Source: Tubulanus polymorphus (lineage: Eukaryota > Animalia > Nemertea). From it: a stretch of 64,000 nt of DNA. Positions 25,570-64,000 of the stretch are shown in pieces. Position 1 is the first letter of the stretch; each line of letters begins with the position of its first letter. The translations under genes were made by a program, and so were the position numbers. Location of the stretch: the NCBI RefSeq assembly GCF_964204645.1, contig NC_134025.1, forward strand, positions 17,955,101 to 18,019,100, given 5' to 3'. The notes below the pieces were generated by a model. That model was not told the DNA's origin. It did not search any database and worked only from the letters and a program-made list of their open reading frames with translations.

Positions 25570-25812
25570 GTAAAGGTCTTGTCGATTTCACACGGTTCCT
25601 GGTATTAATGTCGCAGCCAATCAATGATGGAGAGACAATCGAGGATGTGATGGAAGCATTCCGGGTGTTTGATAAAGATGGAAGTGGGTATATCAGCGCA
25701 GCTGAACTAAGACACGCTATGACAAATCTAGGTGAAAAAATGCCCGACGAGGATGTCGATGAAATGATTCGGGAAGCTGATGTTGCTGGGGATGGACAAA
25801 TTAAATATGACG
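25570..25812 (+). CDS. Calmodulin-like gene, 243-nt exon (EF-hands 2-4)
   Basis: TTTTCAG acceptor, GT donor, phase 1/1. Translates [13 protein letters not shown]...[53 protein letters not shown]. 243 nt = 107+136 (fused vertebrate exons 4 and 5). Confidence 0.9.
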
Positions 25813-36896: not shown

Positions 36897-38330
36897 ATGA
36901 AGTTTCCAAAAGCTTTCCAATATAATAAATCAATTAAATATAATATTCAATATAATATTCCTGCAATAAATATTATTTCAAATATTTCATATAAAAATTT
37001 AGTTTTAAATTCATTAATTAATTTAGAAATTTATGTTACTGAAACAAAGTTTTTTATTTCTAGAATGGAAAATATATTTAACACATATGAAGTTACTTTT
37101 ACTCGAGATGAATATAATATATATAAAATAAAATCTAATCTGTGGTATAAGTTGGAACAATCATCTTAATAACTTAGATAAAAATTTGAATTATTCTGAT
37201 TTAAAATTAATTTATACAATATTTAGATTTCACACGTATTTTCAAATTAGAATTATATTAAATGAATTAGAATGTCCTTTACCTGGATCGAAATATTTTA
37301 AAAAATTGGATAATAATATTAATCTATCTCAGTTTTATAAAATATGTAATGAATTTAATATGAATATGAATAATTTTGACTTGGTGTTGGTGAACAGTTT
37401 GAAATAAAAAGAATTGATTATATGCATACAGTTGGTGCTTATGATAATTATAAAATTGATGATAATAATGGTTGGATTAATGTTGTTTTAGAAAATAGTG
37501 AAGGTTTTACAAAATCCGGTATGCAAAGAATAAATCAATCTATAAGAATATATTTGATTTGTATTTTAGGATCACAAGTTGAAACAAGATCCCCCAATAA
37601 TTGGAAATTTAAATACATCATTTGATACACAAAAACATATTCAAAGTATCATTTGAAGATTCTATTCGTAATGATAAAAATAGATCAATTCCAGAAAATA
37701 TAATAAGATATCAAAATTATTTAGATAAATCTCATGTAAGATTAAATTATTGTATAGGTCCCAATTTATTAATCATTTCTTATGATTTAATACTAAAAAT
37801 GGGAAATATAATTGGTTATAATAATCTAATTAAAACTGCAACAATAAATAATTCATTTGGATTAAATGATATAAATAAAAAGATTATTACTGCTCCAAAA
37901 TTAATGGAAGGGGAAAAATTTAAAAAAAAATTACAATCAACAGAAACTAAAACAAAAAATATTAAATTAAATAGTGATTCTAAAATTTAAGATTACCATA
38001 CGTGAGAAAATATTAAAACTGATAATATTCAACATGAAATAATTAAAACTAATGATAATAAATATCAAATTAGCTATAAACCACCAAATGATAACAATTC
38101 TATACAGGACAAAGTTAAAGATGGTTTGTAAAAATTAGCAAAATATTTATGTGAACTATCTAAAAAATCTGTTGCAGCTTTACCCGGAGTTATAGCATCA
38201 ATTGTTGGTTTTGTTTTAAAATCTACTGGAAATGTTACTAGTTTTGCTGCAGCATATTATTTCATTTTTAATAACAGTTGTAAGTGTAATTATTTTTGGA
38301 TTGGTAAACATGATAAAAAATAAATAATTA
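36897..38330 (+). pseudogene. Disrupted Polinton-like virus protein of unknown function with C-terminal hydrophobic segment
   Basis: Consecutive ORF fragments (HTYFQIRIILNELECPLPG; GFTKSGMQRINQSIRIYLICILGSQVETRS; ..AALPGVIASIVGFVLK). TAAATG start. Confidence 0.55.
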
Positions 38331-38350: not shown

Positions 38351-39592
38351 ATGAGTGGGAGTTATATAAATCCTGCTAAGGATTCTAGAACATCTAATGC
38401 AATTAAAGCAGAAAGATCTCATCATATCATTACTCATAATCCTTCTAATATTAATCCTGATGAAACTTTATACGTTAGAATTCCTCGATTAACACAAAAT
38501 ACTTTTTATGTTCCAAATAGTATTTATTTATCAGCTGATATAAAAGTAACTGATAGTAACAATAATTATTTCGTAGATAATGTTGAAAGAAATTCAATTA
38601 AAAATTAATTATAAAGATTGGATCAGAAACAGTTTTTTCATTAGATGATTATAATTTATCTACGCATTATAAAGAGTTATGGTAAACACAAGAAAATAGA
38701 AATAATATGATATTTCAAGGCATCCAATCAGAAACCAAAATAAATTAAAATCAGAAGCTTATAATGCAGTAGTAACAAATGACATAGATAATTTAATGAA
38801 AAAAGATTTATGGAAGCAAATATAAAATTCCATTAGACTTTGAATTGATAAATGATAATGCACCTTTATATAAATATGCAATTCAAGAAGATATGATATT
38901 CGAAATAACATTTGCTCCTGTTAATGAAATTGTATTATCTAGCGTTGTTAAAGATATGGGTTATAAATTATCAAATATATGTTTAGAATATGATACAGTA
39001 ACTGATGAAAATATTGCCAACACAATTCAAACTCAATACAATTAAGGTTATTCATTATTATATGATTATATTGATAAATTTAAAACTGTTACTATTAATG
39101 CAAATGATGAAATAATTAATGAGAATATTAACTTCCCAAAAAGATCTATTAAAGGTATGTTAATATTTTTTACCATTGCAACATATTCCAATGGTGCAAT
39201 AAAAGTTGATAATTATCATACTCCTGAAATATCAAAAGTAGAAATAACCATTGAAGGTATAGCAAATAAAATATTTTGTCAAGAAATGAGAATGATTGAT
39301 CAATGGGTTGAAATTAAAAAACATTTTATGATTGAAAAAATAAAATCATCTGAAGATTGTAATATCAATCAAATTGATTATTATACCGGCAATAAATATG
39401 CATTATAATTAGATTTTAGAACAACTGAAGATAACTTATTATATGGTTCTGGGAAAAAATTACAAAATACAAAAGATGGAATACAATAATTCTTGAAAAA
39501 GAAAAAAGGAGGTTGAAATTATAAAATGCATATTTATACTATATCTGACGAGCAATTAAATATAAATTCCAATTAGATAGTGTTTTGTATTA
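38351..39592 (+). pseudogene. Putative major capsid protein (jelly-roll), disrupted
   Basis: About 410 codons and beta-rich: HHIITHNPSNINPDETLYVRIPRL..FYVPNSIYLSADI, LSNICLEYDTV, NFPKRSIKGMLIFF, DFRTTEDNLLYGSGKKLQNTKDGIQ. Size and position fit an MCP. The fold is inferred. Confidence 0.55.
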
Positions 39593-40682: not shown

Positions 40683-41603
40683 TTATTTCATGAATTTATA
40701 TTGAAGAGAACCTAATATTTCATAATCTTTTAAATCTTCTAATTTATAAACAAATGGTTTAGTTAATATTATCTTTTTAATCTTAAATATTTCTTCAGTA
40801 AAATTTTGAGTATAACCTTTATAAAATATTTTTCGATATTTAGATATTGTTACATGTTGTCCAATTTTAAATTTAGGTTCTCCGAAATCATGTGTTACAA
40901 ATGCTCCATATAAATTATTCCAAAACAACTTCTGAATTAGCTTCTTTTCTAGCTTTTATAGGTTTCATACCAATACTTGAATGTTTAGAATTATCATAAC
41001 CTTTCGCTAAATCATCTTATACATCGATGTTTCATTAGCAGTAGAGTTTTTTTCACATTCTAGATTTTTATGTTTTATTGAATCTTTCTATAATAGATGC
41101 TTTTTTTATCTGAGTGTGTTGAAAAATACTCTACATCGTTATCAGATAATAATTTCTTTAAATGTTTATTATAAAATTCTTTACCTTCATCAAATTGTAT
41201 CTCATCTAGGATAGCTTCTTTAAATATATTTTTAAAGCATTTGTTACTTCTATACCAGTTTTATATTTGATTGGTACACTCCATGCGTATCTACTGAATA
41301 TATCTATAACATTTAATATCCAAAAATATCCTTTATTGTATTCTTCTAAGTTTACATATCAATTAAATCTGCTTGCCATTGTTTATCAATACATGAAACC
41401 ATAACTTTTCTTGTTAAATAATTTTTATCCATTTTCTTATGGATTTGATATGTTCGTTGATTTTGTAACCATAATTTTAATTCACTATATTTTATATTTT
41501 CATAATCAAATTTTATTTTATCCCATAATTCTGAAACACTTGAATATGATACTTCACTTTCTGGATTATGATATAAATCTCTTAAGTATTGTTCTTTTTT
41601 CAT
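40683..41603 (-). pseudogene. Polinton-type retroviral-like (RVE) integrase, frameshifted
   Basis: WLQNQRTYQIHK, QWQADLIDM, VIDIFSRYAWSVPIK, QFDEGKEFYN, KASIIERFNKT and KFKIGQHVTISKYRKIFYKGYTQNFTEEIFKI. Confidence 0.92.
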
Positions 41604-41699
41604 CTTATTTTAATCCATTAATACTAATTTAGATTTATTTTCAATGATTTAATCATTTGATTTATTTTCTGGTATAATAGGTTTATCATCATCATTATT

Positions 41700-42010
41700 A
41701 AAGGCCCCTTTCATTACTGCAGACTGGGTATTGGCGAGTTTTAAGTCACGCGTTTTCGCAGCGGCTCCTATTTTGGGCCAAATTTCCGTATTAACCCGAG
41801 GCGTGGTTAATGCCTCGCAATTTTTGGGTACCGGGTAGGTCTTTTCCTTGGCCCTCATCATTTCAATGTTCAGGGCTTTAGAGAACCTTTTCTCTATAAT
41901 TTCTGTTAACCCTTTGTCCATTTCTGGCCCAGGGGTTTCATCGTTTAACTCCATATCGAGGAGTTTAAGTTTAGACTCTGAGTCCGAGGGGTTTTCCTCT
42001 TCGTCCCCTC
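41700..42010 (-). mobile_element. GC-richer fragment of DIRS/Ngaro-type gag-like ORF inserted in the AT-rich element
   Basis: YPVPKNCEALTTPRVNTEIWPKIGAAAKTRDLKLANTQSAVMKG, with a composition shift. Flanked by CATTATT on both sides. Confidence 0.6.
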
Positions 42011-42029
42011 CATTATTTTACATATTTCC

Positions 42030-42383
42030 TTATTCGAAATCTATTTCATGATGCCCTTTTTCATTCTTACCTTTGTATACGAAATAGAAATCACCAGAAC
42101 ATAATTCTTCTAGATCTTCACTTGATAATCTATGAAATCTATCTGGTAAATATGTTCTGAATTTATATGTATTTCCTTTTAATCCTTCATATTCTAAGTG
42201 TATAACTAATTTATCTCCATATTTGTTAGTAACTGTATCAATATTTGTAATTAGATATTTCTTATGGATTATTAATTCTTTTAACTTCTTAAATTTATAA
42301 TCTACTGATTTGACATTTGAAGTATCTTTTAATCTATCTAGAAATGATTTGTTGTTCTCACTGTGCACTTGTTTACTCTTCAT
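42030..42383 (-). CDS. Intact 117-aa pPolB-associated protein (ORF117; possibly OB-fold ssDNA-binding)
   Basis: Conserved in three copies (42030, split 52103/54277, 54983). KKLxEL..KYLITNIDTVTNKYGDKLVIHL..FRTYLPDRF..FYFVYKG. Function is inferred. Confidence 0.7.
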   Translation of the reverse strand: MKSKQVHSENNKSFLDRLKDTSNVKSVDYKFKKLKELIIHKKYLITNIDTVTNKYGDKLVIHLEYEGLKGNTYKFRTYLPDRFHRLSSEDLEELCSGDFYFVYKGKNEKGHHEIDFE

Positions 42384-42412
42384 TTATAATACATATTTTT
42401 ATTAAAATTTGA

Positions 42413-45400
42413 TTAACACGTTAGAATTCTTTTCATTATTTCCTTCTCTTTTGTTTCTTCTCTTTTAAATTTTAAGTATTCATCTAAATTACAACCATAA
42501 GCAACTGGATGAATTCCATCACCTAAAATATATCTTTTATCATCAAATGGGTTTAGACTTATCTTTTCAATTTCTTCAATAAACATTTCATGATCTTCAG
42601 ATCTTAAACATTTCATCTTATGTTTTCTAACTTCTTCATTGAATATACAATTGATGTAATCTTTGAAATGAATATTCTTTTCTACTACACTTTTGGTTAT
42701 TCCTTTTAACTTTTTAGCTTCATGTTCTTTAGTTTTATATGAATACATTTTAGATCTAATACCGATGAACTCTATCATTTCTTCACCGCCTAATTCATCT
42801 TTGAATTTACCAGGAACCTTTTTATTATCATTGCTAAACAATTCATGATTTTTAGGATAGTTACTGAAATCAAAATGATGTTTTAATGTTTTTAAATCAT
42901 CTGTTATGTTATTAGTTTTTATCTTTAATATGTAACTGTCAGTATCAAAATATAAGATTTCTATATGTTTTTCCCCAAAAAGTGGTTGTAATACATTATA
43001 ATAGAATTCATACATTAGTAATTTTGATAATTCTAAAACTGAAGCGCCAACATAGATTGGTTTATTAAATTTCATAGATGTTCTTCTCATTTTAACTGCA
43101 GCTAAATTTTCATCAAATATTCTGTTACCTAAAAACTTAGGATATGATTGTAAATGCCTTATCCCTTTACCATTACTAACTAACTCAATATCATTTCTAT
43201 TTCTAATATTTTCACAAGTCTTACCATAGAATGCATTATTCATTAACTTGAAGATATCTTTCTCAAAATCAGTTTTAGCTTCAGTTCTCTGTTTGGTGTT
43301 AAAATCTATATATTTTTCTAACCACTTAGATTGACTAAATGAAATATAACTATGTACTTTTTTTAGGATCATTCCTTGTTTTAGATAAAACTTTTAACAT
43401 TCTATAATGCACTACATAATTATATTTATCTTCCTGAGTTACCATTAACTTTTCTGTATGAATATGATTTTTCGGGTTTAATTCTTTTTTGATAATTTGA
43501 TAATTCTTCATGAGTTAGTTTTATGTTCTGGACAGTATGCTAGATTTCTAGATTTGAATTTAATATGTTCAGGATATTCTAAATCTACAACAAAAAAGTA
43601 ACCAGTATCTGAATCATCTGCAATATCTAGAATTCTTTTCTACCAATCAAATTTATCATTATTTTCACGTTGTAAAACTTCACTTATTTCAAATACTCCA
43701 TAAGGTTGTGGTTCCATCATTGCCCAACCATACAAATTATTTGCATCTATATATAATAACTTATATCCAGGGTTATCATTTACATTGAAATATCTATCAC
43801 CTAATACACCTGAAACTCCTCCTCTTATAGATTTTTCAAATAATAATAATTGATCTATATTTGTTAACAAATCCATTTTTATATTTGTAAATTTTAATCC
43901 ACAATCCCATGTTAAACCTGGTGATGAATAAAAATGACAAGGATCAATGTTAAAATATTTTAGGTTTACATCTCTAAACTTTCGAATATATCGGTTAATA
44001 ATAATACATCTGATTCTAAATATAAATCTACTAATCGCCCATGATTTTCTATTTTGAAATGATTCCAAATATTCAATGTTCTATTATATACTTCATCTTT
44101 AACATATTCATTTTTTAATTCATCATAGAATTGTTCTTTCAATAATTCAGTTATGTTAAAATCATTATGATTTTTATAGAAAGAATATGGAATTGCGCCT
44201 TTATATCTCATTAATTGAAAATCATCATTATTTGGGTAGTGTTGTTTTAATATTGTTACTTCATCATCAACTAATGATTTTGATAAGTTATCTAATGAAC
44301 TATTTAAAAATCTATATGAATCTATAAATCTTAGACACCCAAATTGGAATGATATATAATTCTCAGATGTTTTAGTTAACATTCTAAATTTATAAGTTGG
44401 TATTTTATCTTTTGATCTATTTGAATTTAATCTTTCTATTTCATTATTGATTTCTTCTATTTTATGGCATAACTGTTTGATAAATAAATGTGCATCATAT
44501 CCTGATAGATTATGAAATATAACTGGTACAAAGTTAATTTTCTTAGCTTGTAAGTTACAATTCTCATGTGCAGCGCCTCTAAACTTTCCATTCAAATGAT
44601 CATGGTCTCTTACTTTTTTATCTCTAAAATTAAATATCTTTTCACAATAATAACATTTATCTGCAAACGCAAATTCTTCTTTATCTTCTTCTGTCATTAT
44701 AATTTCTATATTTTTATTTAACTTTTCATTAAATCTTATTTCATATTCAATTAATAAGTCACAAAAATGATTGATAACATTTTCATTTCTATAATTATAA
44801 TATTCACTTTTAATTAGTTCTGGATAATCAGATTTTATATATAACCCAAAAGCTGCTGCTGATTGATGAATCTTTTTAATAGTATTTGTTTTTGGTGGTT
44901 CTTTTGGTGAGAAATCATTTTCATTAGAATTTAATTTCTTTCTTTTATAATATATTTCTTTTCTATCTTGATCAGTTAATTCTTTATTTAATGATTCAAA
45001 ATCTCCATATATAACAAATGGAACTTTATTTTTGTAATCATATTTTTTGAATTCTAATATTTTATCCTTTTCATTTGGTAAAACTAATTTACAATAATCA
45101 TGATTTTCACATAATTTTTTATGATTTAATAATGTACTTTCATTACTGAATCTATGTAAACATTTTCTACAAAGATATATTTTATGGTGATCATTTTCTG
45201 ATTTAAAAAATAAATCGATTTGTTTAATCCACATATAATGATTCTCATAATATAATATATCTATAACATCGTTTGAATCATAATCTTTTGATAGATATAA
45301 AGGTTCTAATGTATAATGTTTTATGTTGTTACCTTTTGTATTTGGTAATTTAATTAAATCAAATACATTTATTCTTAAATTATTATCTCTTTCTATTTTT

Positions 45401-46200
45401 GGGATGTTTTTAATTATAACAGGATACTTATCTATCTTATAATTATTTTCAAATGGTTTATAATGAGTTAATCTTAAACTATGTGTAATATCTTCTGTTG
45501 GATGTAAGCAACTTATAATTGTCCATAGAAAACATTTATCATCTTCATTTTGTACATTTATAACAGCATTAGTTTTAAATGGTAGTTCAATATAACTCGA
45601 TGCTTCAATATCTGGTTCTTAATAATATGATAAATTATTTTCATCAATTGGTTTTGATTTAGTTAACTTATTTTATTTTGTGTTATAAACATGTAAAGTC
45701 ATAAATATTTTTTCATCAAATATTAAACCAGATCCTTCAAAATATTTCTCTTCTATTTTAGTTTTTACTTCATTATAACATTTATCTAATTTATCATATA
45801 TATGTTGTTTATATATAATATGTTGTGAATGAGAATTTATATTATATATTGGTTTATCTTCAGATTTTATGAATTTAACTTTAGAAGATATACTTATTTT
45901 AGGATATTCAACATCAGATATTATTTTCATTATTTCTTTCATATTTTCTAAATGTTTTTTATTTTCTTCTAATGTTTTTCCTTTATGAAATTTAAACTCG
46001 ATAACTGCTGGACCAATATCACTTTTAAATGCTTCGGTTATCTCTATATCTTTTTTATTATCCAATAAATTAATATATTTTCTTACATCTTCCATGTATG
46101 GTCTTTTATTGTTTAATTTATTTTTTATGCTTTTAATTGTCTTCTCTTTCTTATCATTATCGTTATCAAAATAATCTTCACCTAAAATATCATTATTCTT
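42413..46200 (-). pseudogene. polB: Protein-primed family B DNA polymerase, copy B (5'-truncated, few frameshifts)
   Basis: YGDFES (ExoI), FHNLSGYDAHLF (ExoII), FIDSYRF, VRDHDHLNGKFRGAAHENCNL insertion, YIDANNLYGWAM (motif A), KLMNNAFYGKT (motif B) and YFDTDS (motif C, 42935-42952). Confidence 0.95.
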
Positions 46201-46211
46201 ATTTCTAATAT

Positions 46212-46272
46212 TTTATTTTTTTACTTTCTCGACCTCTCGACCTTTGGTATAGAACAACTAAATCCCTATTAC
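46212..46272. repeat. Inner half of terminal palindrome (left end of unit A)
   Basis: CTCGACCTCTCGACCTTTGG...ATCCCTATTACT matches the inner arm of the full hairpins. Confidence 0.7.
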
Positions 46273-46279
46273 TCTTATA

Positions 46280-47095
46280 TTTATGTATTACGCCAGAAAA
46301 TATTATAACTGTAACTAATCCAATTGTAATATATAATTTATTATTACTTCCAGCATTAGAAGAATTAGATGGATTATCATTCGAATCAATAACAGATAAT
46401 TTCTGTGATTCATTTATATCAGTTTATTTCTTTTTCTTAGCTCTTTTTAATTTTGCAGATCTTTTCCCCAACTCCTTTGCCCACTGTACTTGTTTTTCAG
46501 ATCTAGGCTTCTTCTTAACATCATCACTCATTCATTTTACTTAATTTTTGTTCTGATTCAATATCTTCTGATTTATTTTTATCTTTGTATTCAATAGGTT
46601 TAATGTTAGAAAATGTTATAACTCCAGTAGAAATCAATGTCATTATTCCACCTAATTGGAATGAAGCGTATCCAACCAATTTCTGTAGTTCTATCATTAC
46701 TAAATAATCATTTTTTAAATCGCTAAATAATTTATTTTCATCATCAATTGGTATAATCCGGTAACATAACTTAGAATAACATTTTACTATTCCATCACTT
46801 ATAGAATCGTTTATTCTAGTTAATCTAGCTTCTTCATATATTTTGAAATGTTTGATTACTTTATCTGTTTTCATGTTATCTAATTCTTGAAAAGTTAAAA
46901 TTTTACCCAAGAAATCCTTAGATTTTCCACCAGCAATTAATAACTCAAGATGATGCTTACATGTATAGTATTCATAATCAATATTATAATCAATATTATT
47001 TTCAATTTTGATGGAATATCCTTATTATTACTAATGCCCAAATAATCTAAGGTTTTTTCAATATCAATACTATTCTTATTAGATTTCTTTGACAT
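46280..47095 (-). pseudogene. Unknown viral-like ORF(s) with hydrophobic segments
   Basis: TAAATG start at 47095. Includes the 128-aa fragment 46524-46910. Confidence 0.5.
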
Positions 47096-47329
47096 TTATA
47101 TTAGAGAAAAAATACTAAAAAACAATAACTAATACTAGAATTCTTTAGGTTAATACTAGCTTAGTAAAGTTAAAGAATTCTAGTATTAGTTAATATTATT
47201 TATATTTTTTAGTATTTTTTATTTGTGATATAAAGTAATCTCCTTTTGAAAAGAAATAATAGATTTTGAAAAAAATTAAAACAGAAATAATGACTAGTTG
47301 AAGATATGTAATTTTTAATTCATTTTATT

Positions 47330-48093
47330 TGAATTATATCATTCTTTAACCGCTTAATAAAGATTCAATATATTGTTCATTATTTGGATCACTATTCCAT
47401 AATTCAATGAATTTTTTTGCCTTTGTTAACTGTTCTAAATATAATTGTAAATCTAGTTTATTAAATTTTATTTTCTTTTCTTTTCAAGAGGCCTTAAATT
47501 TTTCCAATTCCAAATTAACTTTTTATTGTATTCATCATTCATCATTCATGTTAAATTAAGATATTGGTAACAAATGATCTATTTGGAAATTCACCATAAT
47601 TTTCTATATTCATTTCACCATCAAACTGAAATATAATCCATGATTTTAGAAATTTATCTGAACAACCTAGCAAATTAGATAGTGTAACTGAGTGTTTATC
47701 TTTACTGTATAATTTTGATAATCTAATTATCAAACATTGTTTCAATTTAAAATCAAAATCTGTATGATATTTTTCTTTATAATAATTTTTATTATACGCT
47801 TTATAATATTCTCTATTATTATCCCTCCATTCTCTCATATATTCTGTTATATAATCTGGGTGATTTTCTCTCCATTGTTTATTTTTAACTTTGAATTTTT
47901 CAATATTATCCGTATAATATTCTTGATTATTCTTGTAATATTGTTTATTCTATAGTGTACGACAATTTTTGCAATACTAACCTTTACCATCTTTAGTGTT
48001 TTCATCATTATAATATTCTGATAATGATTTATCTTATTCACATTTTGAACATTTCTTATGGTGAATATCTATAGTTTGTGACGGTTCCTCCAT
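47330..48093 (-). pseudogene. HNH-type endonuclease with N-terminal CxxC...CxxC finger, large-DNA-virus type, disrupted
   Basis: KKCSKCE.DKSLSEYY..TKDG..YCKNC; LLGCSDKFLKSWIIFQFDGEMNIENYGE; QIDHLLPIS.FN; WNWKNLRPLEKKEN. Confidence 0.7.
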
Positions 48094-48122
48094 TTATAAT
48101 ATATATTTTTATTAAACATTGA

Positions 48123-51100
48123 TTAACATTTTAGAATCCTGTTCATTATTTCCTTTTCTTTCTCTTCTTCTCTTTTGAATTTTAGATATTCTTCTATATT
48201 GCAACCATAAGCAACTGTGTGTATACCATCATCTAAAATATATCTTTTATCATCTAATGGGTTTAGACTAACCTTTTCAATTTCTTCAATAAACATCTCG
48301 TGGTACTCAGATCTTAAACATTTCATCTTGTGTTTTCTAACTTCTTCATTGAATAATCAATTGATGTAATCTTTGAAATGAATATTCTTTTCTACTACGC
48401 TTTTGGTAATTCCTTTTAACTTTTTAGCTTCATGAGTTTTAGTTTTATAACTATACATTTTAGATCGAATTCCAATGAACTCTATCATTTCTTCACCTCC
48501 TAATTCATCCTTAAACTTCCCGGGCACCTTTTTATTAACATTGCTAAACAATTCATGATCTTTAGGATAATTACTGAAATCAAAATGATGTTTTAATGTT
48601 TTTAAATCATCTGTTATGTTATTAGTTTTTATTTTTAATATGTAACTGTCATTATCAAAATATAAGATTTCAATATGCTTTTCTCCGAAATGAGGTTGTA
48701 ATACGTTATAATAGAATTCATACATTAATAGTTTTGATATTTCTAAAACTGAAGCACCAACATGAATTGGTTGATTAAATTTCATAGAAGTTCTCTTCAT
48801 TTTAACTGCAGCTAAATTTTTATCAAATATTCTGTTACCTATAAATTTCGGGTATCTTTGTAAATGTCTAATTCTTTTACCATTTCTGACTAACTCAATA
48901 TGATTTCTATTTCTAATATTTTCAAAAGTCTTACCATAGAACGCATTATTCATTAACTTGAAGAAATCTTTTTCGAAATCAGTTTAAGCTATAGTTCTCT
49001 GTTCGGTATTAAAATCTATATATTTTTCTAACCATTTAGATTGACTGAATGAAATATATCTATGTACTTTTTTAGGATCATTCCTTGATTCAAGTAAAAC
49101 TTCAACATTCTATAATGTACTACATAATTATATTTATCTTCCTGAGTTACCATTAACTTTTCTGTATGAATATGATTTTCAGGTTTTATTCTTTTTTGAT
49201 AATTTGATAATTCTTCATGTGTTACAGTTTTATGTTCGGGACAGTATGCTAGATTTCTAGATTTAAATTTTTTATCTTCAGGGTTTTCGAGGTCTACAAC
49301 AAAGAAGTCACCAGTCTCTGAATCATCTGCAATATTTAGAATTCTTTTCTTCCAATCGAATTTATCATTATTTTCATGTTGTAAAACTTCAGTTATTTCA
49401 AATACTCCATAAGGTTGATATCTATCGCCTAATACACCTGAAACTCCTCCTCTTATAGATTTTTTAAATAATAATAATTGATCTATATTTGTAAACAAAT
49501 CCATTTTTATATCTGTAAATTTTAAACCACAGTCCCAAGTTAAACCTGGACTAGAATAACAATGGCAAGGATCAATATTAAAATATTTTAGATTTACGTC
49601 TCTAAATCATTCAAATATATCAGTTAATAATAATACATCTGATTTTAGATATAAATCTACTAATTGTCCATAATTTTTTATTACAAAATGATTCCAAATA
49701 TTCAATGTTCTATTATAAACTTAATCTTTTACAAATTCATTTTTTAATTCATAATAGAATTGTTCTTTTAATAATTCAGTTATATTGAAATCATCATGTG
49801 GTTTATAAAATGAATATGGAATTGCTCCTTTACATCTCATTAATTAAAAATCATCATTATTTGGATAGTGTTGCTTTAATACTTTTAATTCATCATCAAC
49901 TAATGATTTTGATAAATTATCTAATGATCTGCTTAAAAATCTATATGAATCTATAAATCTTAGACACCCAAATTGGAAAGATATATAATTCTCAGATGTT
50001 TTAGCTAACATTTTAAATTTATAAGTTGGTATTTTATCTTTTGATCTATATGAATTTACTCTTTCTATTTCATTATTGATTTCTTCTATTTCATGGCACA
50101 GTTGCTTGATGAATAAATGAGCATTATACCCTGATAAATTATGAAATATAACTGGAACAAAGTTAATTTTCTTAGCTTGTAAGTTACAATTCTCATGTGC
50201 TGCGCCTCTAAACTTTCCATTCAAATGATCATGGTCTCCAACTTTTTTTAAATTAAATGTCTTTTCACAATAAAAACATTTATCAGCAAACTCAAATTCT
50301 TCTTTATCTTCTTCTGTCATAATTATTTCTTTATTTTTATTGAACAATTTATTAAATTATATTTCATATTCAATTAATAAGTCACAAAAACGATTGATAA
50401 CATTTTCATTTCTTTAATTATAATATTCACTTTTAATTAGTTCTGGATAATCAGATTTTATATGTAACCCGAAAGCTGCAGCTGATTGATGAATCTTTTA
50501 AATAGTATTTGTTATTAGAGGATCTAAATAATCAATTACATCATTTTCATTGGAATTTAATTTCTTTCTTTTATAATATATTTCTTTTCTCTCTTGATCA
50601 GTTAATTCTTTATTTAGTGATTCAACTCCATATATTACAAATGGCACTTTATTCTTGTAATTATATTTTTTGAATTCTAATACTTTATCCTTTTCATTTG
50701 GTAAAACTATTTTACAATAATCATGATTATCGCATAATTGCTTATGATTTAATAATGCCCTTTCAGTTCTGAATTTAGTTATACATTTTCTACATAGATA
50801 TATTTTATTATCAAAATCATTTTCTGATTTAAAAAATAAATCAATTCTTTTAATCCACATATAATGTTTCTCATAATATAATATATCTATAACATCATTT
50901 GAATCATAATCTTTTGATAAACACAAAGGTTCTAATGTATATTGTTACCTTTTGTTTTTGGTAATTTGACTAAATCAAACACATTTATCTTTATATTATT
51001 ATCTCTTTCTATTTTTGGGATATTTTTAATTCTAACAGGATAATTATCTATCTTATAATTATTTTCAAATGGTTTATGATTTGTTAATCTAAAACTATGA

Positions 51101-52070
51101 GTAATATCTTCTGTTGGATGTAAGCAACTTTTTATTGACCATAGAAAACATTTATTAGCAGAATTTTGTACATTTATAACAGCATTAGTTTTAAATGGTA
51201 ATTTGATATAACTTGATCCATTTATAATATCATCTTTATAATATGATAAATTATTTTCATCTATTGGTTTTGATTTAGTTAATTTATTATATTTTGCGTT
51301 TTAAACATGTTAAGTCATAAATATTATTTCATCAAATATTAAACCAGATCCTTCAAAATATTTCTCTTCTATCTTATTTTTTTATTTCATTACAACATTT
51401 CTTAAATTTATCATCTATATGTTGTTTAGATAAAATATGTTGTGAATGGGAATTTATATGTCATATTGGTTTATCTTCAGATTTTATAAATTTAACTTTA
51501 ACTGATATGCTAATTTTAGGGTTTCAACATCAGTAATTATTTTTATAATATTTTTCATATTTTCTAAATGTTTTTTATTTACTTCTAATGTTTTACCTTT
51601 ATGAAATTTAAACTCGATAGCTGCTGGACCAATATCACTTTAAATGCTTCAGTTATCTCTATTTCTTTTTTTTATCTAATGAATTAATATAATTTCCAAC
51701 ATCTTCCGTGTATGGTATTTTATTTTGTTAATTTATTTTTCATTCTTTTTTTTGCCTTCTGTTCCTTATCATTATCTTTATCAAAATAATCTTCACCTAA
51801 AATATCATTATTGATATTTGTAATATGATTTTTAGATTTTAAATGTTCTTTATAATATCTTTCATCACTGAATGGTTGATTACATGTGTCACATTTGTAT
51901 ATTTCTTTTTCATTCTTTAATTCATCTAATTTAGTTTCTAATATATCATCTTTATATTCTAATTTCAATTTGTTTTATAAATGTGTTTTAGTTTTATTAT
52001 GCCCTGCTTTTTTAGATTTATCTATATTGATTTTACATGTTGAACAGTAGTACTTCTTATTTGCTTCCAT
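48123..52070 (-). pseudogene. polB: Protein-primed family B DNA polymerase, copy A, with N-terminal zinc fingers; motif A deleted
   Basis: Collinear with copy B. KLMNNAFYGKT and YFDNDS are present. An in-frame deletion at ~49417 removes YIDANNLYGWAM. Confidence 0.93.
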
Positions 52071-54373: not shown

Positions 54374-54463
54374 AGTAATTGGGCATAAAGGGATTCAGAT
54401 CAAAGGTCGAAGGGTCGAGTGAGGAAAAAATAAAAAAGAAATTCGAGCTTGCGAGATTTATTT
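54374..54463. repeat. Inner arm plus loop of terminal palindrome (right end of unit A)
   Basis: AGTAATTGGG...CAAAGGTCGAAGGGTCGAG...AAATTCGAGCTTGCGAGATTTATTT. Confidence 0.7.
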
Positions 54464-54800
54464 AGTTCATAAATACTATGTTGTATCTCAGACACAAGAC
54501 AACTAGCCTTCGCACCAAAACCATAATGGTCCTGTCCCTAGATGTTTGACTGTTAATCACGGCCACAACAGACCAGTTGTCCGAATAAAACCAGATCGTG
54601 CGGTTTCTCCACTCTGAACCCCAGGTAGCCAGGGCCGCTAAAATAGGATAGAACTCCAAAACAGATATATTGTAATTTCTCCATGCTGTAGACCAAGAAC
54701 CATAAAACCAGCGCTGACCATAGACACCCCCATAACCCAAGGCACCTGCCGAATCTGTATATAGAAAGAGTGCGCTAGACGTTTGCCTATCATCGATGAC
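54464..54800 (-). mobile_element. DIRS/Ngaro retrotransposon RNase H fragment
   Basis: LYTDSAGALGYGGVYGQRWFYGSW..NISVLEFYPILAALATWG..IWFYSDNWSVVAVINSQTSRD..MVLVRRL. Confidence 0.85.
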
Positions 54801-54923
54801 AGTAATAGGGAATATGTTGTTTCGGGCCAAAGGTCGAAGGGTCGAAAAAATAAATTCTCGCACACTCAAATTTATTTTTCGACCCTTCAACCTTTAACCT
54901 GAAACAATGTATTCCCTATTACT
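54801..54923. repeat. ~123-nt imperfect palindrome (terminal hairpin, left end of unit C)
   Basis: AGTAATAGGGAATATGTTGTTTC...GAAACAATGTATTCCCTATTACT. Confidence 0.9.
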
Positions 54924-55363: not shown

Positions 55364-56817
55364 CTGGAAGCAAATAAGAAGAACTACTGTCCGTCATGTA
55401 AAATTAATATAGATAAATATCAAAAAGCAAGACACAATAAAACTAAAACTAGAGAATAAATTGAAATTAGAATATAAAGATGATACATTAGAAACTAAAT
55501 TAGATGAATTAAATAATTAAAAAGATATATATAAATGTGATACATGTAATCAATCATTCAATGACAAAAGATATTATAAAGAACATTTAAAATCTTAAAG
55601 TCATATTACAAATATCATTAATGATATTATAGGTGAAGATTATTTTGATAAAGATAATGATAAGAAACATAAGACGATTAAAAGAATAAAAAATAAATTA
55701 AACAATAAAAGACCATACATGGAAGATGTTAGAAATTATATTAATTCATTAGATAATAAAAAAGAAATAGAGATAACTGAAGCATTTAAAAATGATATCG
55801 GTCCAGCTGCTATTGAATTTAAATTTCATAACGGAAAAACATGAGAAGAAAATAAAAAACATTTAGAAAATATGAAAAATATTATAAAAGTAATTACTGA
55901 TGTTGAATACCCTAAAATTAGCATATCAGTTTAAGTTAAATTCATAAAATCTGAAGATAAACCAATATATAATATAAATTCTCATTCACAACATATTATT
56001 TCAAAACAGCATATAGATGAAAAATTAGATAAATGTTATAATGAAGTAAAAACTAAAATAGAAGAGAAATATTTTGAAGGATCTGGCTTAATATTTGATG
56101 AAATAATATTTATGACTTTACATGTTTATAACACAAAATATAATAAGTTTACTAAATCAAAACCAATTGATGAAAATAATTTATCATATTATAAAGATGA
56201 TAATATAAATGCATCAAGTTATATTAAACTTCCATTTAAAACTAATGCTGTTATAAATGTACAAAATGAAGATGATAAATGTTTTTTATGGTCAATTATA
56301 AGTTGCTTACATCCAGTTGAAGATTATAATCAACATATTTCTAGATTAACAAATTATAAACAATTTGAAAATAATTATAAGATAGACAATTATCTAGTTA
56401 GAATTAAAAATATCCCAAAAATAGAAAGAGATAATAATTCAAAAATAAATGTATTTGATTTAATCAAATTACAAAATACAAAAGGTAACAATATAAAACG
56501 TTATACATAAGAACCTTTGTATTTATCAAAAGATTATAATTCAAATGGTGTTATAGATATATTATATTATGAAATCATTATATGTGGATTAAACAAATTG
56601 ATTTATTTTTTAAATCAGAAAATGATTATACTCGTAAAATATATCTACGTAGAAAATGTTTATATAAATTCAGTAACGAAATTGCATTATTAAATCATAA
56701 ACAATTATGTGATAATCATGATTATTGTAAATTAGTTTTACCAAATGAAAAGGATAAAGTATTAGAATTTAAAAAATATGAGTATAGGTAAATACCTTTT
56801 GTTATATATGGAGATTA
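55364..56817 (+). pseudogene. polB: pPolB copy C, N-terminal part only
   Basis: Collinear with the N-terminus of copies A and B (zinc fingers, INVQNEDDKCFLWSIISCLHP, HYMWIK). Truncated at YGD by foreign sequence. Confidence 0.88.
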
Positions 56818-59564
56818 TTTGTTCCTGTCTACCAGTGTCCGCGGCGTCAAGTCTCACCGTAGTGCCCATGGCAGTTGCTAAAGCAGATCTTCATAATTTA
56901 AAGAGTAGTAGAATGAACAATGTAAAATGTTTTCATCGATATCATAAAAAACTGTACCTCGAAGACACAGGACCTTTGGTCCTCCAGTCCTTCCTATTGA
57001 GGAGGCCGATATCGAAAATTTCTATCTGAACCCAAAATAGATAATGGCCAAAATTCAAAATTATGAGTAAGTCATATCTTTGGGACCAAAATGTTCAATC
57101 TTGAGTTGAATATGAAACGGAAAATGGGCAATTGATTGATAGGATGATGAACAGGAGAAAAGGGTAACTTTTTGGCATCAATCAAACATCTTGAAATGAC
57201 AATATGTTTTGGGGTTAGAAATATGCCGATGCCGTTTGCCAAACACATTACCAAGTTGCTCACGGTTCCTCAGGTTTAACACTTATGTAAATTCGAGCAA
57301 CTCATTTTCAGCGTGAATGTGATTCGAACAGACAAAGTGTGTGGTTCCACCACTCACTGTTAGTGTACGTTTGTCGGTAGATGTAAAGCGTAACCATTTA
57401 ATATCGTACCAAGTACAATCTACCGATGCTTCGAGGCCCATGGGCCTTGTTGAATTTCATCCACTATTCACCCGAAAGACATACGTATAGTATTTTTATA
57501 GATATGAAAAAGACATGAAAAGACAAATGTATTTTGACATTTAGTGCGTATATTTGATCATCCAAAGTAACAATCAAAGTAACAAAAAATCCTTCGGTTG
57601 TGAAATCTTACGTGGCCCAGTATACGGCGTGCTGGCTGTTTCTGGGTCGGTCATTTCTATAATCGTGTACTTCAGACGTGTATATTTTATCGCACGAGCA
57701 TTAGTTTGCGACAGAACTCTGAAAAAAAAATGAATAAAGATACACGAACCGTACGAAAACATCGCATCATCGGGAGAGTGGCCTCAGCTCAAAACCGATA
57801 TTTTAACAGACTCAGTGGATGAGCAACGATGCACAATCCTGAAATTAGAGGCAGTTCATAAAGGACGTCTACGATTACAAAACGTATTTTCACAATAATC
57901 ATAAGTACCATAAAACTCGATGGAATTTCGTTTTTCAATCATCGTGATATAAAGATAAATAGTACTTTAACATACTTTGTACTTCTTATACTGTATATTT
58001 CTTTAGTAGTATAAATAAAGAGTGGATCAGCAGGGCACCTGAGACCATTCCACGATCTAAGGTCAGTTGCCAAAAGTTAGTAAGTTTACCAGTGGATAGT
58101 TAACATTTATAATGACAATTTAAACTTCATTGCTAAAATGCTCAAATGCGGAAAATTGATAATACGATAATACGATACGAAAACTCACTGTGTACAAATT
58201 CAAAAAGATGATCTCTAGTGAGAGATCGAACGTTGTTTCGTAAATTTCTAACGATAAAACTTGGTGTGAAATTTGAAATGTGTACTTAGTGGATCTTTTT
58301 CATATTAACAGTGTATTTGGTCATGTATCACATTGTATAATGGTTAATTTAAACTAACTGGTCCCAGAGTTGTATCCATAATTCCTGTAAGAGAGGATGC
58401 AATCTTTTTGCGGCTAACAGTACAAATAGCTAGAAAAAGCAACGATAGTGCATTGGGAAACTTAAAGCAAGCGTACATTGGTTGTTTAGGTTTTTCGTTG
58501 GGAAAATTAATGTTTAATCAGTATTGAAATATCCGAGGCGAACTTTTCCAGGAATTTACAAAGTTTAGCTTTTTTTACAAGGAATTTTTTTTTGTAGTCC
58601 GATATCCGAAATTACCTCTGGCGTGGTGAGATACAATATAAAACCAACCGTAGAGTCAAATATTTTACCACAAATTTCTATAATTGATAAGAAGATTGAG
58701 TAATAGACACAGACATGCAAAGAGTATCTGAATTCCACTCCATTTCAAACTCATCATCTTTACACAAACTCCAACTTGTTGAACAGTTCAAAATTGCGTG
58801 GCTTGAATTATTACGATAACTAAAATTAGGGAGAATTGCTTGCAATACTTGCTCATCTACATTGGCTACCAATTTAACAAAGGATTGAATTTGAGTGTTT
58901 GATATTGTAAAAATACCATACTGAATTATGGATTCAGTTTCAACTTTTTGATTGAACAATTTTAATCACATATTGGGTGATTTTTACCCGCATATATGGA
59001 ATAACTGTCAATATATCATGTTCAATTTTATACAATCTGACTTTTGAGATGTCATTCAATCAATACATTCATTTGCGGTCGTCGCTTTCAATAGCCACCA
59101 CGGACTGGCTCCTTATTATCCCCTTGGCGATACCTTTCGGAGCCGTGATTAATTACGTATCTCTATTGGGAGAGGGGGTTACTGAATTTTGGTACAAAGT
59201 TGTACATGGGGGAGGGGGTCAGCAAAAAAGGTACGTACTTTGAGGGAGGGGGTATTAATCAATCTTGAAAAACGTGAGATTTTGAAGTACGTAATTTGTG
59301 AACGCTCCCTTGGCGGACGATCCCACACGTTTCTTGCTCCAACCCTAGAATGCGCAATAGTCGTCATGAACACCCGATTTGAATCTAAATTCAAAAGACT
59401 CCTAAAAACACACCTGTTGGCTAGATTACTCTAAAGCGCCTTTGAAAATTTATATGCAAGAATCAGTGAAATTGGCGCATTATCAGTTGTATTCATCATT
59501 CGAACCCACAATTCTCCTATCCTATGAATGTGGAGACCCATTCTCGTAAGAGAATGAATATATA

Positions 59565-60334
59565 AGCCGCGTTCACACGACAACTAGTTAGACCGGTCTA
59601 AATTTGGACCGGACCAGGTACGGACCCATTTAGACCGATCTAACTAGTTGTCGTGTGAACGCGGCTTATATATACATTATCTTACGAGGACCAAATTTTG
59701 GTGAGCATTCACTCGGCGTTTTGACACGCGGTGATAAAATCGCGTGTCTCCGGGCCCACAAGATGTCGCAATCTGCTAAATAATTAATTGCGCCTGGATG
59801 AAGTCTTGCTTCCAGATTCCAAGTAGGACAAAACATTCTTCATTTCTTCAATTCGATCCTCTGTCAGGTTTATACATTTTTGCGAATTCGATTTTATTCT
59901 ATCATGCTGAAACTCAAGTGTCGTTTAAACACGGTTCAAAACACGGCAGTAAAACGGATGATGATCGCGATATACGAATACGAATTACGCTCCAAACATT
60001 TTCATTGAATAGGGAGGAAAAATAGTACTTAAAAATGATTTCATAAACGGTGGTAAAAGCATTTAAAACTTAATAAACTGGACTCACACTCTACCGCAGA
60101 GGTTGCGACATCTACCGCAGAGATTCAGAATTACGATTTAGACCGGACCTGGTATCACACACGCATATTTAGACCGGTCCAAAATTTGGTCCGGGCCTGG
60201 TTCGCTCTTTTAGACCTTGCCAAATTAGACCGGTCTAGTTTGGAACGGTATTTTTACCCGTGTGAACGCTTGGTCTGGTCTAAATTGGACCGGACCAAAT
60301 TTAGACCGGTGTAAATTTCGTCGTGTGAACGCGC
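59565..60334. mobile_element. MITE with GCCGCGTTCACACGAC-type TIRs (PIF/Harbinger-like) and TAGACCGG subrepeats
   Basis: TIR at 59566, with inverted copies at ~59650-59665 and ~60320-60334. Confidence 0.6.
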
Positions 60335-60468
60335 ATATAGGCTCTGTTGCGTTCATATCATTTGTTATGAGGCTACGTGTCATCTTTATTTGGAAAATGG
60401 CGTTTTCAGATCAGAAAACGAGAGGACGACAAATCACTCATCACCACCAGTAATTTTTTCCCTAATAA

Positions 60469-63400
60469 ATGGGAGACAGTAAGTACCAGACAGAAAATAT
60501 TGATGTTAGTAAAAATGAATATTAGTGTCCATATTGTAAAATATACATCGATAAATCTAACAAATCTCGGCATGAAAAAACTGCAAATCATTAAAAAAAA
60601 TGTTATAGATTTTGAAACACCAGAAAATTCAAATGATAGAAAAGAACGATTAAATGATATGTAAAAAGACAAAATAAAATGTAAGTTTGTAATGAATTTA
60701 TGGCAAAAAGGAATTATAAAAGACATCTCGAATCACAAAAACACCAACAAAATTTAAATAAAAATATTTTAGGAACAGAATATTTTGATGATAAACCTCA
60801 ACAGGTAAAAAAACCAGCTTCAAAAACTAAATCTATTTCAAATAAACCTTTCATGGAAAACGTTAGAAATTATATCGATTCACTAGAAATAAAAGATACA
60901 ATTGAAATTTTAGAAACATTACGTAGTAAAATTGGTCCTTAAGCTATTATATTTAGATTTTTTGAAGGTACAACAATAGAAGATTATAGCAAATATATTG
61001 AAATAATGGACAAAATAATGGACCTTGTAACAGATGCTGAATACCCAAAAATTACTATTTCTGGAAAAGTAAGTTTTATAAAATCAGAAGTAAAAATGGA
61101 GTATAATATTCAAACATATTCTGAAGAAATAATTTCAAAAACACAAATAAAAGAGAAATTAGAAAAAATATTTAATAAATTCAAACGTCATATTGAAGAA
61201 AGATATTTTGAGGGTTCTGGTTTAACATTGAATGCAATTATATTTTCAGATTTAAACATTTATAATACAAAAAGGAATAACGCATCAAAAAGTAATACAA
61301 TGTTTAAAAATCATTCAAAATTTTCAACAGAAAAGGATGTTAAAGCATCATCTTATATTAAATTACCATTTACAACAAAAGCAGTAATACATTTTCGAAA
61401 TGAAGATAATAAATGTGTTCTATGGTCAATTATTAGTTGTTTACACCCAACTCAGGAAAATATTTGTAGAATAACAGATTATCGGAAATATGAAACATTA
61501 TATAAAATTGATCAATATCCAGTAACTATTAAAATGATTCCTGAAATAGAAAAAGTTAATTATTCAAAAATAAATGTATTCGAATTGAAGCAATTACCAG
61601 AGACAAAAAGTGAAAATATTAAAGATTATACATTACATGCTTTATATTTAACAGAATATTATGATGATGAAAATGTTATAGATTTATTATATTACAAAAA
61701 AGATGAAAATGAACATTATATGTGGTGAAAACAAATAGATTCATTCTTTAGAACAGAAAGTGATTTAAACAGTCATAAAATTTATCTATGTAGAAAATGT
61801 TTATCTAAATTTAGAACTGAAAATGCATTACTAAAACATAAAGAATTATGTGATAATAAAGATTTTTGCATATTAGTAATGCCAACAGAAAAAGATTATA
61901 AATTGAAATTTACTCATTATAAATCTAAAAATATAGTGCCATTTGTAATTCATGGGGATTTTGAATCGTTGAATAAAGAATTTACTAATCAGGATAGAAA
62001 AGATATATATCACAAAAAGCAATTTTTAAAATCAATGGACAAAGGAAATGAATTAAATGAAGACATAATTCAAGACCCACCAATCATAAAAACAATTTAA
62101 AAAGTTCATCAAAGAGCTGCTGCTCATGCTATATTTATAAAAAAATCAAATTATCCTGAATTATATGAAAGTCAATATATTTCTTATAGAGGTGAAGATG
62201 TAGTAAATGAATTTTGTAATAATATAATTGAATTGAATTGAATTGAATGTGATTTTGCACAATTATTAAATCAAAATAAAAAAATAATTATGACTTAAGA
62301 AGATGAAGTTAATTTTCATTATGCAACTCATTGTTGTTATTGTGAAAAACGTTTTTATTCATTTGATAAAAAGTTAAAGATCATTATCATTTAAATTCAA
62401 AATATCGTGGAGCAGCTCATGAAGATTGTAATTTACAAGCTAAAAAAGTAAATTTCGTATCAATATTATTTCATAATTTATCAGGATATGATACTCATCT
62501 ATGTATAAAACAATTATCAGGAAAATTAGGCGCAATTAATCAAGAAATAGAAGAATATAATGCTATAAATGATGCAAATGTAAGAAAATATGATTTTAAG
62601 CTATTAGCTAAGACATCTGAAAATTACATTTCATTTCAATTTGCTTGTTTGAGATTTTCAGATCCTTATAGATTTTTAGCAAGTTCATTAGCTAATTTCC
62701 TATTTTAAAGCAAATGATGAATATAGATTATTGTATATCGATGCTAATAATTTATATGGTTGGGCAATGATGCAATATCAACCATATAGAAATTTTATAT
62801 TAACAGAAGTAGAAAATGATGATAAAACTAATTGGGAAAGCGCAATTATGAGTTTAGAAGATGATGCTCCAATTGGTTCTTTCTTTGTAATTGATTTAGA
62901 ATATCCTAATGATGATATAAAATTAAAATATAAAAACTTACCATATTGCCCAGAACATTAAGCCGTAGATGATAGTTATCTAAATGAATACCAGAAAAAA
63001 ATAAAACTGAACGACCATGTTTTTACAGAAAAATTGATATTAACACAAAATAATGAATGTAATAATATTGTTCATTATAGAATATTAAGATTTTATCTAA
63101 AACAAGGAATGAAATTAAAGAAAGTACATAGAGATATTGAATTTAATCAATCGAAGTGGTCCGAAAAATATATAGATTTCAATACTCAACAGAAAACAAT
63201 ATCTAAAACAGATTTTGAAAAAGATTTTTTTAAAATTAATGAATAATAGTTTTTATGGAAACATGTGAACATATTAGAAATAGAAATGATATTGAATAAG
63301 TAAATAATTCTGAACGATTGGGACATTTACAATCGAGTCCTGGACACTTAGGAAATAAAAGATTTGAAGATTATTTAACAGCAGAAAAATTAAAAAGAAC

Positions 63401-63537
63401 GTCAATGAAATCTAATAAACCTATATTCATTGGTTCAACTGTTTTAGAAATATCAAAATTATTAATGTACGATTTTTATTATAATGTTTTACAACCACTT
63501 TTTGGGGAAAAGCATATAAAAAATCTCATATTTTGAT
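60469..63537 (+). pseudogene. polB: pPolB copy D (more divergent), N-extein up to motif C
   Basis: Zinc fingers, KCVLWSIISCLHP, IHGDFES, FHNLSGYDTHL, YIDANNLYGWAM, KLMNNSFYG and KPIFIGSTVLEISKLLMYDFYY..ISYFD. Internal deletion near 62700. Confidence 0.9.
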
Positions 63538-64000
63538 TCTGTAATAGCTGATACTCCAATATTATTAAAATACAATAATGAAATGTTAATTAAAAGAATT
63601 TCAGAAATAATTCCTAAACAAAATGAACTTTATATTTCGTATGGTGAAAAAGAATTAATATAAATTAATGAATAAATGGATGTTTGGACAAAAAATGGAT
63701 GGGAAAAATTAAAGAATATAATGAGACATAAAACAAATAGGAAAATCTATAGAGTTAGAACTAAATTACGGTTTGTAGATGTTACTGAAGATCATAGTTT
63801 AATTAAACAAAATCGTGATAAAACCAACTGATATAGAAATTGGAGATGAATTATTACATAAAAAATTCTATTCAAGAATGAATCATATGTCATTTGATGA
63901 AATAATTAATAATATCTGTAACATTAGAAGAAAAAGAATATTTTATCAAAGGATTTTTTATGGGAGATGGTTCAGCAGGTGTTTATAAATATGTTAATTG
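63538..64000 (+). mobile_element. Intein (Hint plus LAGLIDADG homing endonuclease) in pPolB motif C; runs off the window
   Basis: After YFD the frame reads SVIADTPILL (block A)...DVWTKNGWEKLKNIMRHKTNRKIYRVRTKLRFVDVTEDHSL (block B TxxH, 63784-63795)...IEIGDELL...YFIKGFFMGDGS (LAGLIDADG block C, 63939-63974). Two stops and two frameshifts. Confidence 0.88.

Follow-up and report, generated by a model that had tools for sequence, protein, structure and literature searches.

We analysed a 64,000-nucleotide stretch of DNA, here called the window. In the reading that we consider very probable, the polymerase at its end (copy D) is a dead Polinton protein-primed PolB (pPolB) with a LAGLIDADG intein in motif C, and this intein belongs to one clade found in at least nine polymerases. 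Intact members of the clade are predicted to splice and likely home, and the clade likely stems from one old capture from a giant-virus PolB. The insertion is precise, is matched by intein profiles and folds, has conserved splicing and endonuclease residues in five full-length relatives, falls in a single clade, and is both present and absent within one near-identical polymerase family. The intein family is known, but its host class, comprising at least nine Polinton-type polymerases, is new, and the sequences show signs of homing.

A precise intein insertion in a decayed Polinton polymerase

The features of copy D and its intein are as follows.

60505–63537, + strand: N-extein, decayed protein-primed PolB copy D of the endonuclease-VII-bearing class (tblastn to P0033 at 60–80%)
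63538–64000, + strand: intein, N-terminal ~45%, bounded by the window end (TIGR01445, collinearity with P0014)
63538–63570, + strand: Block A with Ser1, SVIADTPILLK (from sequence; 275 of 278 family members begin with Ser)
63784–63795, + strand: Block B TxxH, TEDH (from sequence)
63942–63974, + strand: first LAGLIDADG motif, FIKGFFMGDGS (76% identity to P0014 over 25 aa)

The polymerase portion retains motif A (62740) and motif B (63233), followed by the YFD of motif C. Approximately 500 bp are missing at 62698/62719, and 12 stops occur in frame +1 between 60505 and 62343, to which frameshifted stretches may contribute. Copy D is a dead gene: stops and frameshifts interrupt extein and intein alike, and with these stops no protein can be made. 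The PF03175 profile matched copy D weakly and also matched its intact relatives. The intein-free locus L022, which encodes P0033, shares 85% DNA identity with copy D over 62719–63537, and the alignment ends at exactly 63537, the last base ahead of the Ser codon.

The intein begins at 63538 on the plus strand, within motif C (YFD/SVIAD, where the slash marks the insertion site), and its Ser1 codon occupies 63538–63540. An earlier note on this DNA had placed the start at 63523, which is the first base of ISYFD. The motifs that it had quoted are present: ISYFD is followed by SVIADTPILLK, VWTKNGW, MRHKTNRKIYRV and VDVTEDHSL, all in frame +1, with IGDELL in frame +2 and FIKGFFMGDGS in frame +3. The frameshift that it had proposed in an A-run lies near 63517–63522. 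Further frameshifts within the intein were located near 63815–63820 and 63915–63920, and in-frame stops at 63661 and 63673.

Profile searches identified the insertion as an intein. The window piece scored 32.6 bits against the NCBIfam intein_Nterm model (TIGR01445, cut-off 24.5), and its frame +1 part scored 101 bits against the intein set, where the best of 200 shuffles reached 28.1; the match is far above chance. The Pfam Intein_splicing model was weak on the window piece alone (13.8 bits, cut-off 35.8). A PDB sequence search with the same piece returned three chance matches at E 1.1 and no intein, and Rfam gave 0 matches. The window stops inside the endonuclease, covering the N-terminal ~45% of the intein, which is collinear with residues 1–160 of the P0014 intein. 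As far as the window reaches, the full-intein signature claimed in the earlier note is there, namely Ser1, TEDH and the first LAGLIDADG motif; the second LAGLIDADG motif is known from full-length relatives (5 of 5). A Hedgehog-type or free Hint domain was ruled out because the element lies inside a host protein, carries an endonuclease and has empty alleles.

Contigs of two further runs span the junction (X3 record 22, 63266–63670; X2 record 14, 63348–63571), so it is no chimera of the present assembly. These contigs are among the 24 pieces listed out of 2326, and the three runs belong to one study, comprise at most two samples and hold at most 0.12 of the window's words.

Copy D begins directly after host repeats. 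Short palindromic repeats built on GACCGGTC are found just 5′ of it, at 59566–59660 and 60130–60335, and resemble a miniature inverted-repeat element. No rve integrase was seen beside copy D up to the window end.

Other Polinton copies and flanking DNA

The window holds four pPolB copies from two families. In addition to copy D, we identified the following Polinton features.

42416–46212, − strand: copy A pPolB, empty site YFDTDS at 42952 (different family, close to P0017)
48126–52070, − strand: copy B pPolB, empty site YFDNDS at 48662 (motif sequence, protein match)
55385–56850, + strand: copy C pPolB, 5′ part only, stopping short of the intein site
40710–41639, − strand: decayed rve integrase of neighbouring element A (80% DNA identity to an L021 ORF)
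38354–39564, + strand: candidate major capsid gene of element A, a lead only (~50% identity to an L035 ORF)

Copies A and B are intein-free, as had been claimed, and read ILYFDTDSYILK and ILYFDNDSYILK respectively. The L021 ORF that resembles the integrase matches PF00665 above cut-off. For the capsid candidate, the Atlas look-alikes are capsid clusters, with low recognition, and the single-sequence fold (pLDDT 37.7) was unusable. It did not match the capsid of L098, and the L098 ATPase and protease ORFs had no match in the window. Nearby, at 37132–37990, lies a decayed ORF that is ~45% identical to an unannotated 422-aa ORF adjoining the L035 capsid candidate and matches no Pfam family. Among the inverted repeats of the window, the 25 longest of 68 pairs are copy-to-copy matches.

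The CpG observed/expected ratio is 0.31–0.55 over the Polinton copies (42001–52000) and mostly near 1 in the flanking DNA. A hAT transposase remnant (PF05699) lies at 13700–14779, and 54462–54893 is presumably a DIRS-like RNase H remnant. A calmodulin-like EF-hand exon at 25570–25812 has AG/GT borders, which we take to be the usual animal calmodulin intron positions. At 7900–8770 we found a BEL/Pao-like retrotransposon remnant, with integrase-like motifs and a match to DUF5641, a domain that we assume to be linked to BEL/Pao. The available part of PMC3118150 describes BEL/Pao elements as metazoan retrotransposons. With such flanking DNA, the host is likely an animal.

Intein-bearing relatives of copy D

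We found eight further Polinton-type polymerases with the same intein at the same site as copy D. Five are full-length (P0014, P0042, P0052, P0056 and P0057), and P0015, P0195 and P0298 are partial. A junction-spanning query returned 20 proteins, 2 of which are pPolBs with an intein: P0014 (1693 aa, intein at 1184–1537) and P0015, which is cut by a contig end. The P0014 intein as query gave 1302 matches, and of the best 120 of these 5 were of pPolB type and nearly all others PF00136-type PolB. P0195 and P0298 are C-half fragments obtained from a HMMER search, among the 150 matches listed.

All five full-length members possess Ser1, TEDH, two LAGLIDADG motifs and a GFPL-type C-terminus ending in HN, KN or SN, followed by TD. 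The two acidic LAGLIDADG residues are conserved in 5 of 5, and PF14528 scores above cut-off in each. The C-terminal Asn with Thr at +1 is likewise found in the five full-length and two C-half relatives. P0042 exceeds the Pfam cut-offs for Intein_splicing (37.7 against 35.8), Hom_end and LAGLIDADG_3. An AlphaFold model of a P0014 stretch is confident over most of the intein, with low confidence for the N-extein piece, and matches endonuclease-bearing inteins in the PDB, including 7qsu (E 4e-18), PI-PfuI and PI-SceI. The inteins of the intact relatives likely cut themselves out of the polymerase.

Across the 278 inteins of the wider family, the C-terminus is KN in 143, HN in 114 and SN in 13, with Thr at +1 in 270; the HN/TDS junction that the earlier note had expected downstream is too strict. 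The C-extein of P0195 shares 77% identity with P0033, and on the polymerase tree P0195 falls in one clade with copy D (99/97), so its junction, PLIVKN/TDA, is the best guide to the far junction of the copy D family, although P0195 has no overlap with the window sequence. The residues before the site in pPolBs are YFD, YGD, YMD, YLD, SSD or ASD, and 247 of the 278 family members have YGD. P0014 itself has YGD before the intein (residue 1183), as in giant-virus PolB, and its nearest empty relatives have YQD or YMD. The YGD of P0014 is possibly a trace of the donor, and it also occurs in the empty P0170.

Other searches defined the range of the family. Among the matches listed we fetched 176 loci, of which 120 held the intein only, 55 a pPolB only, one neither, and none both together. 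P0014 had no relative in the viral contigs, the phage collection gave one weak intein match only, and P0042 against the Atlas gave only leads below 0.9. Topoisomerase II also hosts this intein family, at three other sites (DxD/TDG, SKH/TDG and EGD/SAA; P0001, P0002, P0004, P0006 and P0050, and 9998–11200 of L013/L015), so the family jumps between genes. In the PF00136-type PolBs P0043, P0095 and P0053, motif C holds at least two inteins in close succession, the second starting two residues past the first.

Phylogeny of the intein

The 278 extracted inteins were reduced to 113 at 70% identity, and a quick tree was built from the 91 of 320–410 aa plus four fragments. A more careful tree comprised 60 rows, with 46 of the 83 PolB-type rows and two archaeal mini-inteins as an outgroup that fills 41% of columns. 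We use "giant-virus" for tree rows of PF00136 type, some of which are backed by GVMAG contig names (such as L103, L106 and L119).

All nine pPolB inteins, including that of copy D, form one clade (100/99). On a long stem, this clade sits behind three PolB-type nodes (starred nodes, 99/95, 99/93 and 96/86). The intein phylogeny, which the earlier note had proposed, thus nests 9 of 9 pPolB inteins among giant-virus-type PolB inteins. The note's reading of an endonuclease-bearing intein of the giant-virus YxD/TDS PolB family inside a protein-primed PolB is supported. AU tests of a root outside the giant-virus inteins (p 0.174, not rejected), a sister-group arrangement (p 0.46) and P0052 outside the other pPolB inteins (p 0.33) were all three non-significant.

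The copy D intein is 64% identical to that of P0014, 55% to the best non-Polinton intein (from topoisomerase II) and ~42–47% to PolB inteins, and it forms a 99/89 clade with the P0014 and P0195 inteins. Since P0014 is nearest, the copy D intein came by way of other Polintons. The nine inteins in one nested clade indicate that the crossing from giant virus to Polinton was probably single and old. The earlier note had argued for a crossing between nucleocytovirus and Polinton polymerases that implied co-replication with a large DNA virus. The family match is in keeping with such a crossing, but the nearest relatives are Polinton inteins and the crossing is an old, family-level event, which therefore says nothing on co-replication in this host. 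Nor can an old single capture place the capturing cell in an animal. The direction, from giant virus to Polinton, is favoured by the nesting but left unproven by the AU value of 0.174.

Signs of homing among Polinton copies

We compared the inteins with the polymerases that carry them. A polymerase tree was built from 9 plus and 42 minus rows (51 in all, from search-biased sampling, with P0052 omitted as too distant); on it the intein label requires 7 changes and clusters no more than in shuffles. P0052 shares 42–49% intein identity with the other four full-length members, and its polymerase is only 21–31% identical to theirs. Within the endonuclease-VII class, inteins and exteins have diverged to much the same degree, with identities such as 50 against 49/48% and 77 against 80/85%. 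Either an old gain inherited with losses or homing between closely related copies would produce this pattern.

Of the 136 members of the P0042 cluster, the 15 listed comprise 7 plus, 6 minus and 2 fragments, on contigs of at most 1.0 Mb among those listed. The family is ~99% identical, and the plus (1537 aa) and minus (1191 aa) forms differ by the 346-aa intein. At the protein level, at which this family was compared, the plus and minus forms differ in 40–42% of residues within 10 aa of the site and in 1.2–1.7% further upstream. Of 850 columns, 10 show fixed differences, and every one of these falls within −7 to +43. The plus flank has HYMD in common with P0015, the sister of P0042 on the intein tree, and TDSF in common with the empty sister L025. 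The flank resembles a tract that a neighbouring family donated by co-conversion.

The empty P0042-family copies vary in 6 of 20 columns at the site and in 66 of 830 outside it (Fisher p 0.0045). As the rows share ancestry, the higher variability at the site is a hint only. In the intein-free P0163 and P0165, Cys replaces the would-be +1 Thr (YTD-CDS), and other intein-free sites of this family read YFD-TDA or YGD-TDA. The P0208 cluster (39 members, contigs of at most 3.7 Mb) is sister to the intein-plus P0056/P0057; 0 of its 15 members listed have the intein, and the site motif was found in only 7 of the 15. Taken at the level of sequence, the data suggest that homing operates among Polinton copies, a view favoured because P0052 marks a jump into a distant polymerase and the P0042 family has a tract at the site.

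Proposed mechanism and alternative explanations

In intact members, splicing would follow class 1 chemistry, beginning with a TxxH-assisted acyl shift at Ser1, then attack by Thr+1 and cyclization of Asn. This would restore the YxDTD active site, in which the second catalytic Asp directly follows Thr+1. As the active site would be rebuilt only by splicing, the polymerase would depend on it. Empty sites, whether in integrated elements or in co-infecting ones, would be targets for the endonuclease, and gene conversion would then copy the intein with a short flank into the cut site. For the first capture, Polinton and giant-virus DNAs would have met in one cell, of a host that was possibly not an animal; this step is the weakest part of the explanation. 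A more far-reaching version, which we put forward tentatively and think somewhat doubtful, is a homing drive among animal Polinton copies, in which the intein converts empty copies within the nucleus, empty copies diversify the target to escape cutting, and the intein is a receipt of past replication of animal-type Polintons in a cell shared with a giant virus.

An improbable alternative is one ancient gain with vertical inheritance, many precise losses and homing that is now inactive. Within the endonuclease-VII class, the branching of the inteins largely matches that of the polymerases and identities are similar, in line with this history, but it sits poorly with P0052, whose intein is of the same clade in so distant a polymerase, with the distinct tract around the site in the P0042-family plus copies, and with endonuclease motifs intact in 5 of 5 full-length members. 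We give slightly less credence to a reversed direction, from Polinton to giant virus, or a third donor among unsampled viruses or eukaryotes. The AU value for a root between the pPolB and giant-virus inteins, the sparse mini-intein outgroup and the long pPolB stem speak for such a history. Against it, the best tree nests the pPolB inteins behind the three starred nodes, the family is far more diverse in PF00136-type PolB (pPolBs being 5 of the best 120), and the C-terminal GFPL motif is common to a subset of giant-virus inteins.

A direct, recent transfer of the intein to copy D by a giant virus that infected the same host is very unlikely. The site and the family are those of giant-virus PolB inteins, yet the nearest relatives, P0014 and P0195, lie inside a pPolB-only clade, and non-Polinton inteins reach at most 55% identity, compared with 64% for P0014. 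Less credible still is that copy D is an artefact of chimeric assembly, or a gene simply inactivated by an insertion unable to splice. Copy D is indeed heavily decayed and lies among a tangle of four polymerase copies, but contigs of the two other runs bridge the junction, and five full-length ORFs, each from an independent record, contain this insertion at an identical position. At the family level, the intact relatives refute this explanation. We retain a likely single old capture from a giant-virus PolB, with later likely spread among Polintons, as the preferred reading.

Comparison with known inteins and Polintons

A conserved and apparently mobile clade of this kind would extend both protein splicing and homing to the endogenous viruses that animals carry. 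The available text of PMC11161782 suggests that nuclease insertions in pPolBs derive from intein invasions, and the present family turns that guess into a concrete case. Contact between Polintons and giant viruses can also be traced through the intein, a point relevant to the question of virophage-like behaviour in Polintons, and the plus and minus alleles form natural sets in which homing and target escape can be followed. If the more tentative drive reading were true, the family would represent a natural homing-endonuclease drive among endogenous Polintons of animal genomes.

The portions of the survey PMC5784728 available to us, including supplement rows, list 67 viral DNA-polymerase inteins, assign viral inteins to no viruses other than large DNA viruses and unclassified ones, and count 0 inteins in Metazoa. 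This count agrees with the earlier note, which had regarded inteins as essentially unknown in animal nuclear genes, but the gene that harbours the intein here is endogenous viral and not one of the host's own, and the copy is dead. We did not find an intein in a Polinton or a protein-primed polymerase described in the literature covered; subscription papers were mostly outside this scope and an earlier mention may exist. The word "intein" has 0 occurrences in the main text of PMC8502044 or of the coral survey PMC11131425, and the main text and two supplement files of PMC10710043 do not mention Polinton or Maverick.

The closest known systems are the motif C inteins of giant-virus PolBs, such as mimivirus R322, with which the pPolB inteins share the YxD/TD site, Ser1, TxxH, Asn, Thr+1 and LAGLIDADG motifs. 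Compared by published features, in the part of PMC549080 available, the lengths are similar (337–354 aa for the pPolB type, 351 aa for mimivirus), and full-length identity to PF00136-type PolB inteins reaches ~42% among the matches listed. Unlike the giant-virus inteins, those described here form their own clade, their host is the protein-primed polymerase of an integrating mid-size virus, and the residues before the site vary, in a family where YGD predominates. Endogenous viral-like polymerase inteins are reported from the nuclear genomes of Klebsormidium, Tetrabaena and a labyrinthulomycete (PMC10710043, in the parts available). These cases resemble ours in placing a viral polymerase intein on nuclear DNA, but they concern algae and a protist, whereas ours is a multi-copy Polinton in a likely animal.

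With the Polintons/Mavericks termed adintoviruses (the accessible sections of PMC8502044), the elements share pPolB, the rve integrase and many endogenous copies. By PF03175 score, the window's class looks Beta-like and P0052 looks like an Alpha adintovirus. HNH and VSR endonuclease domains occur inside nematode Polinton pPolBs (bioRxiv 2023.08.22.554363); the text available of that study has 0 hits for Hint and LAGLIDADG and describes no splicing domain. Those polymerases and ours are alike in holding a nuclease within a Polinton polymerase, and the window's class also has an endonuclease VII domain. Unlike the HNH and VSR insertions, however, the insertion reported here is, in its full-length members, a complete Hint and LAGLIDADG intein placed in the polymerase active site.
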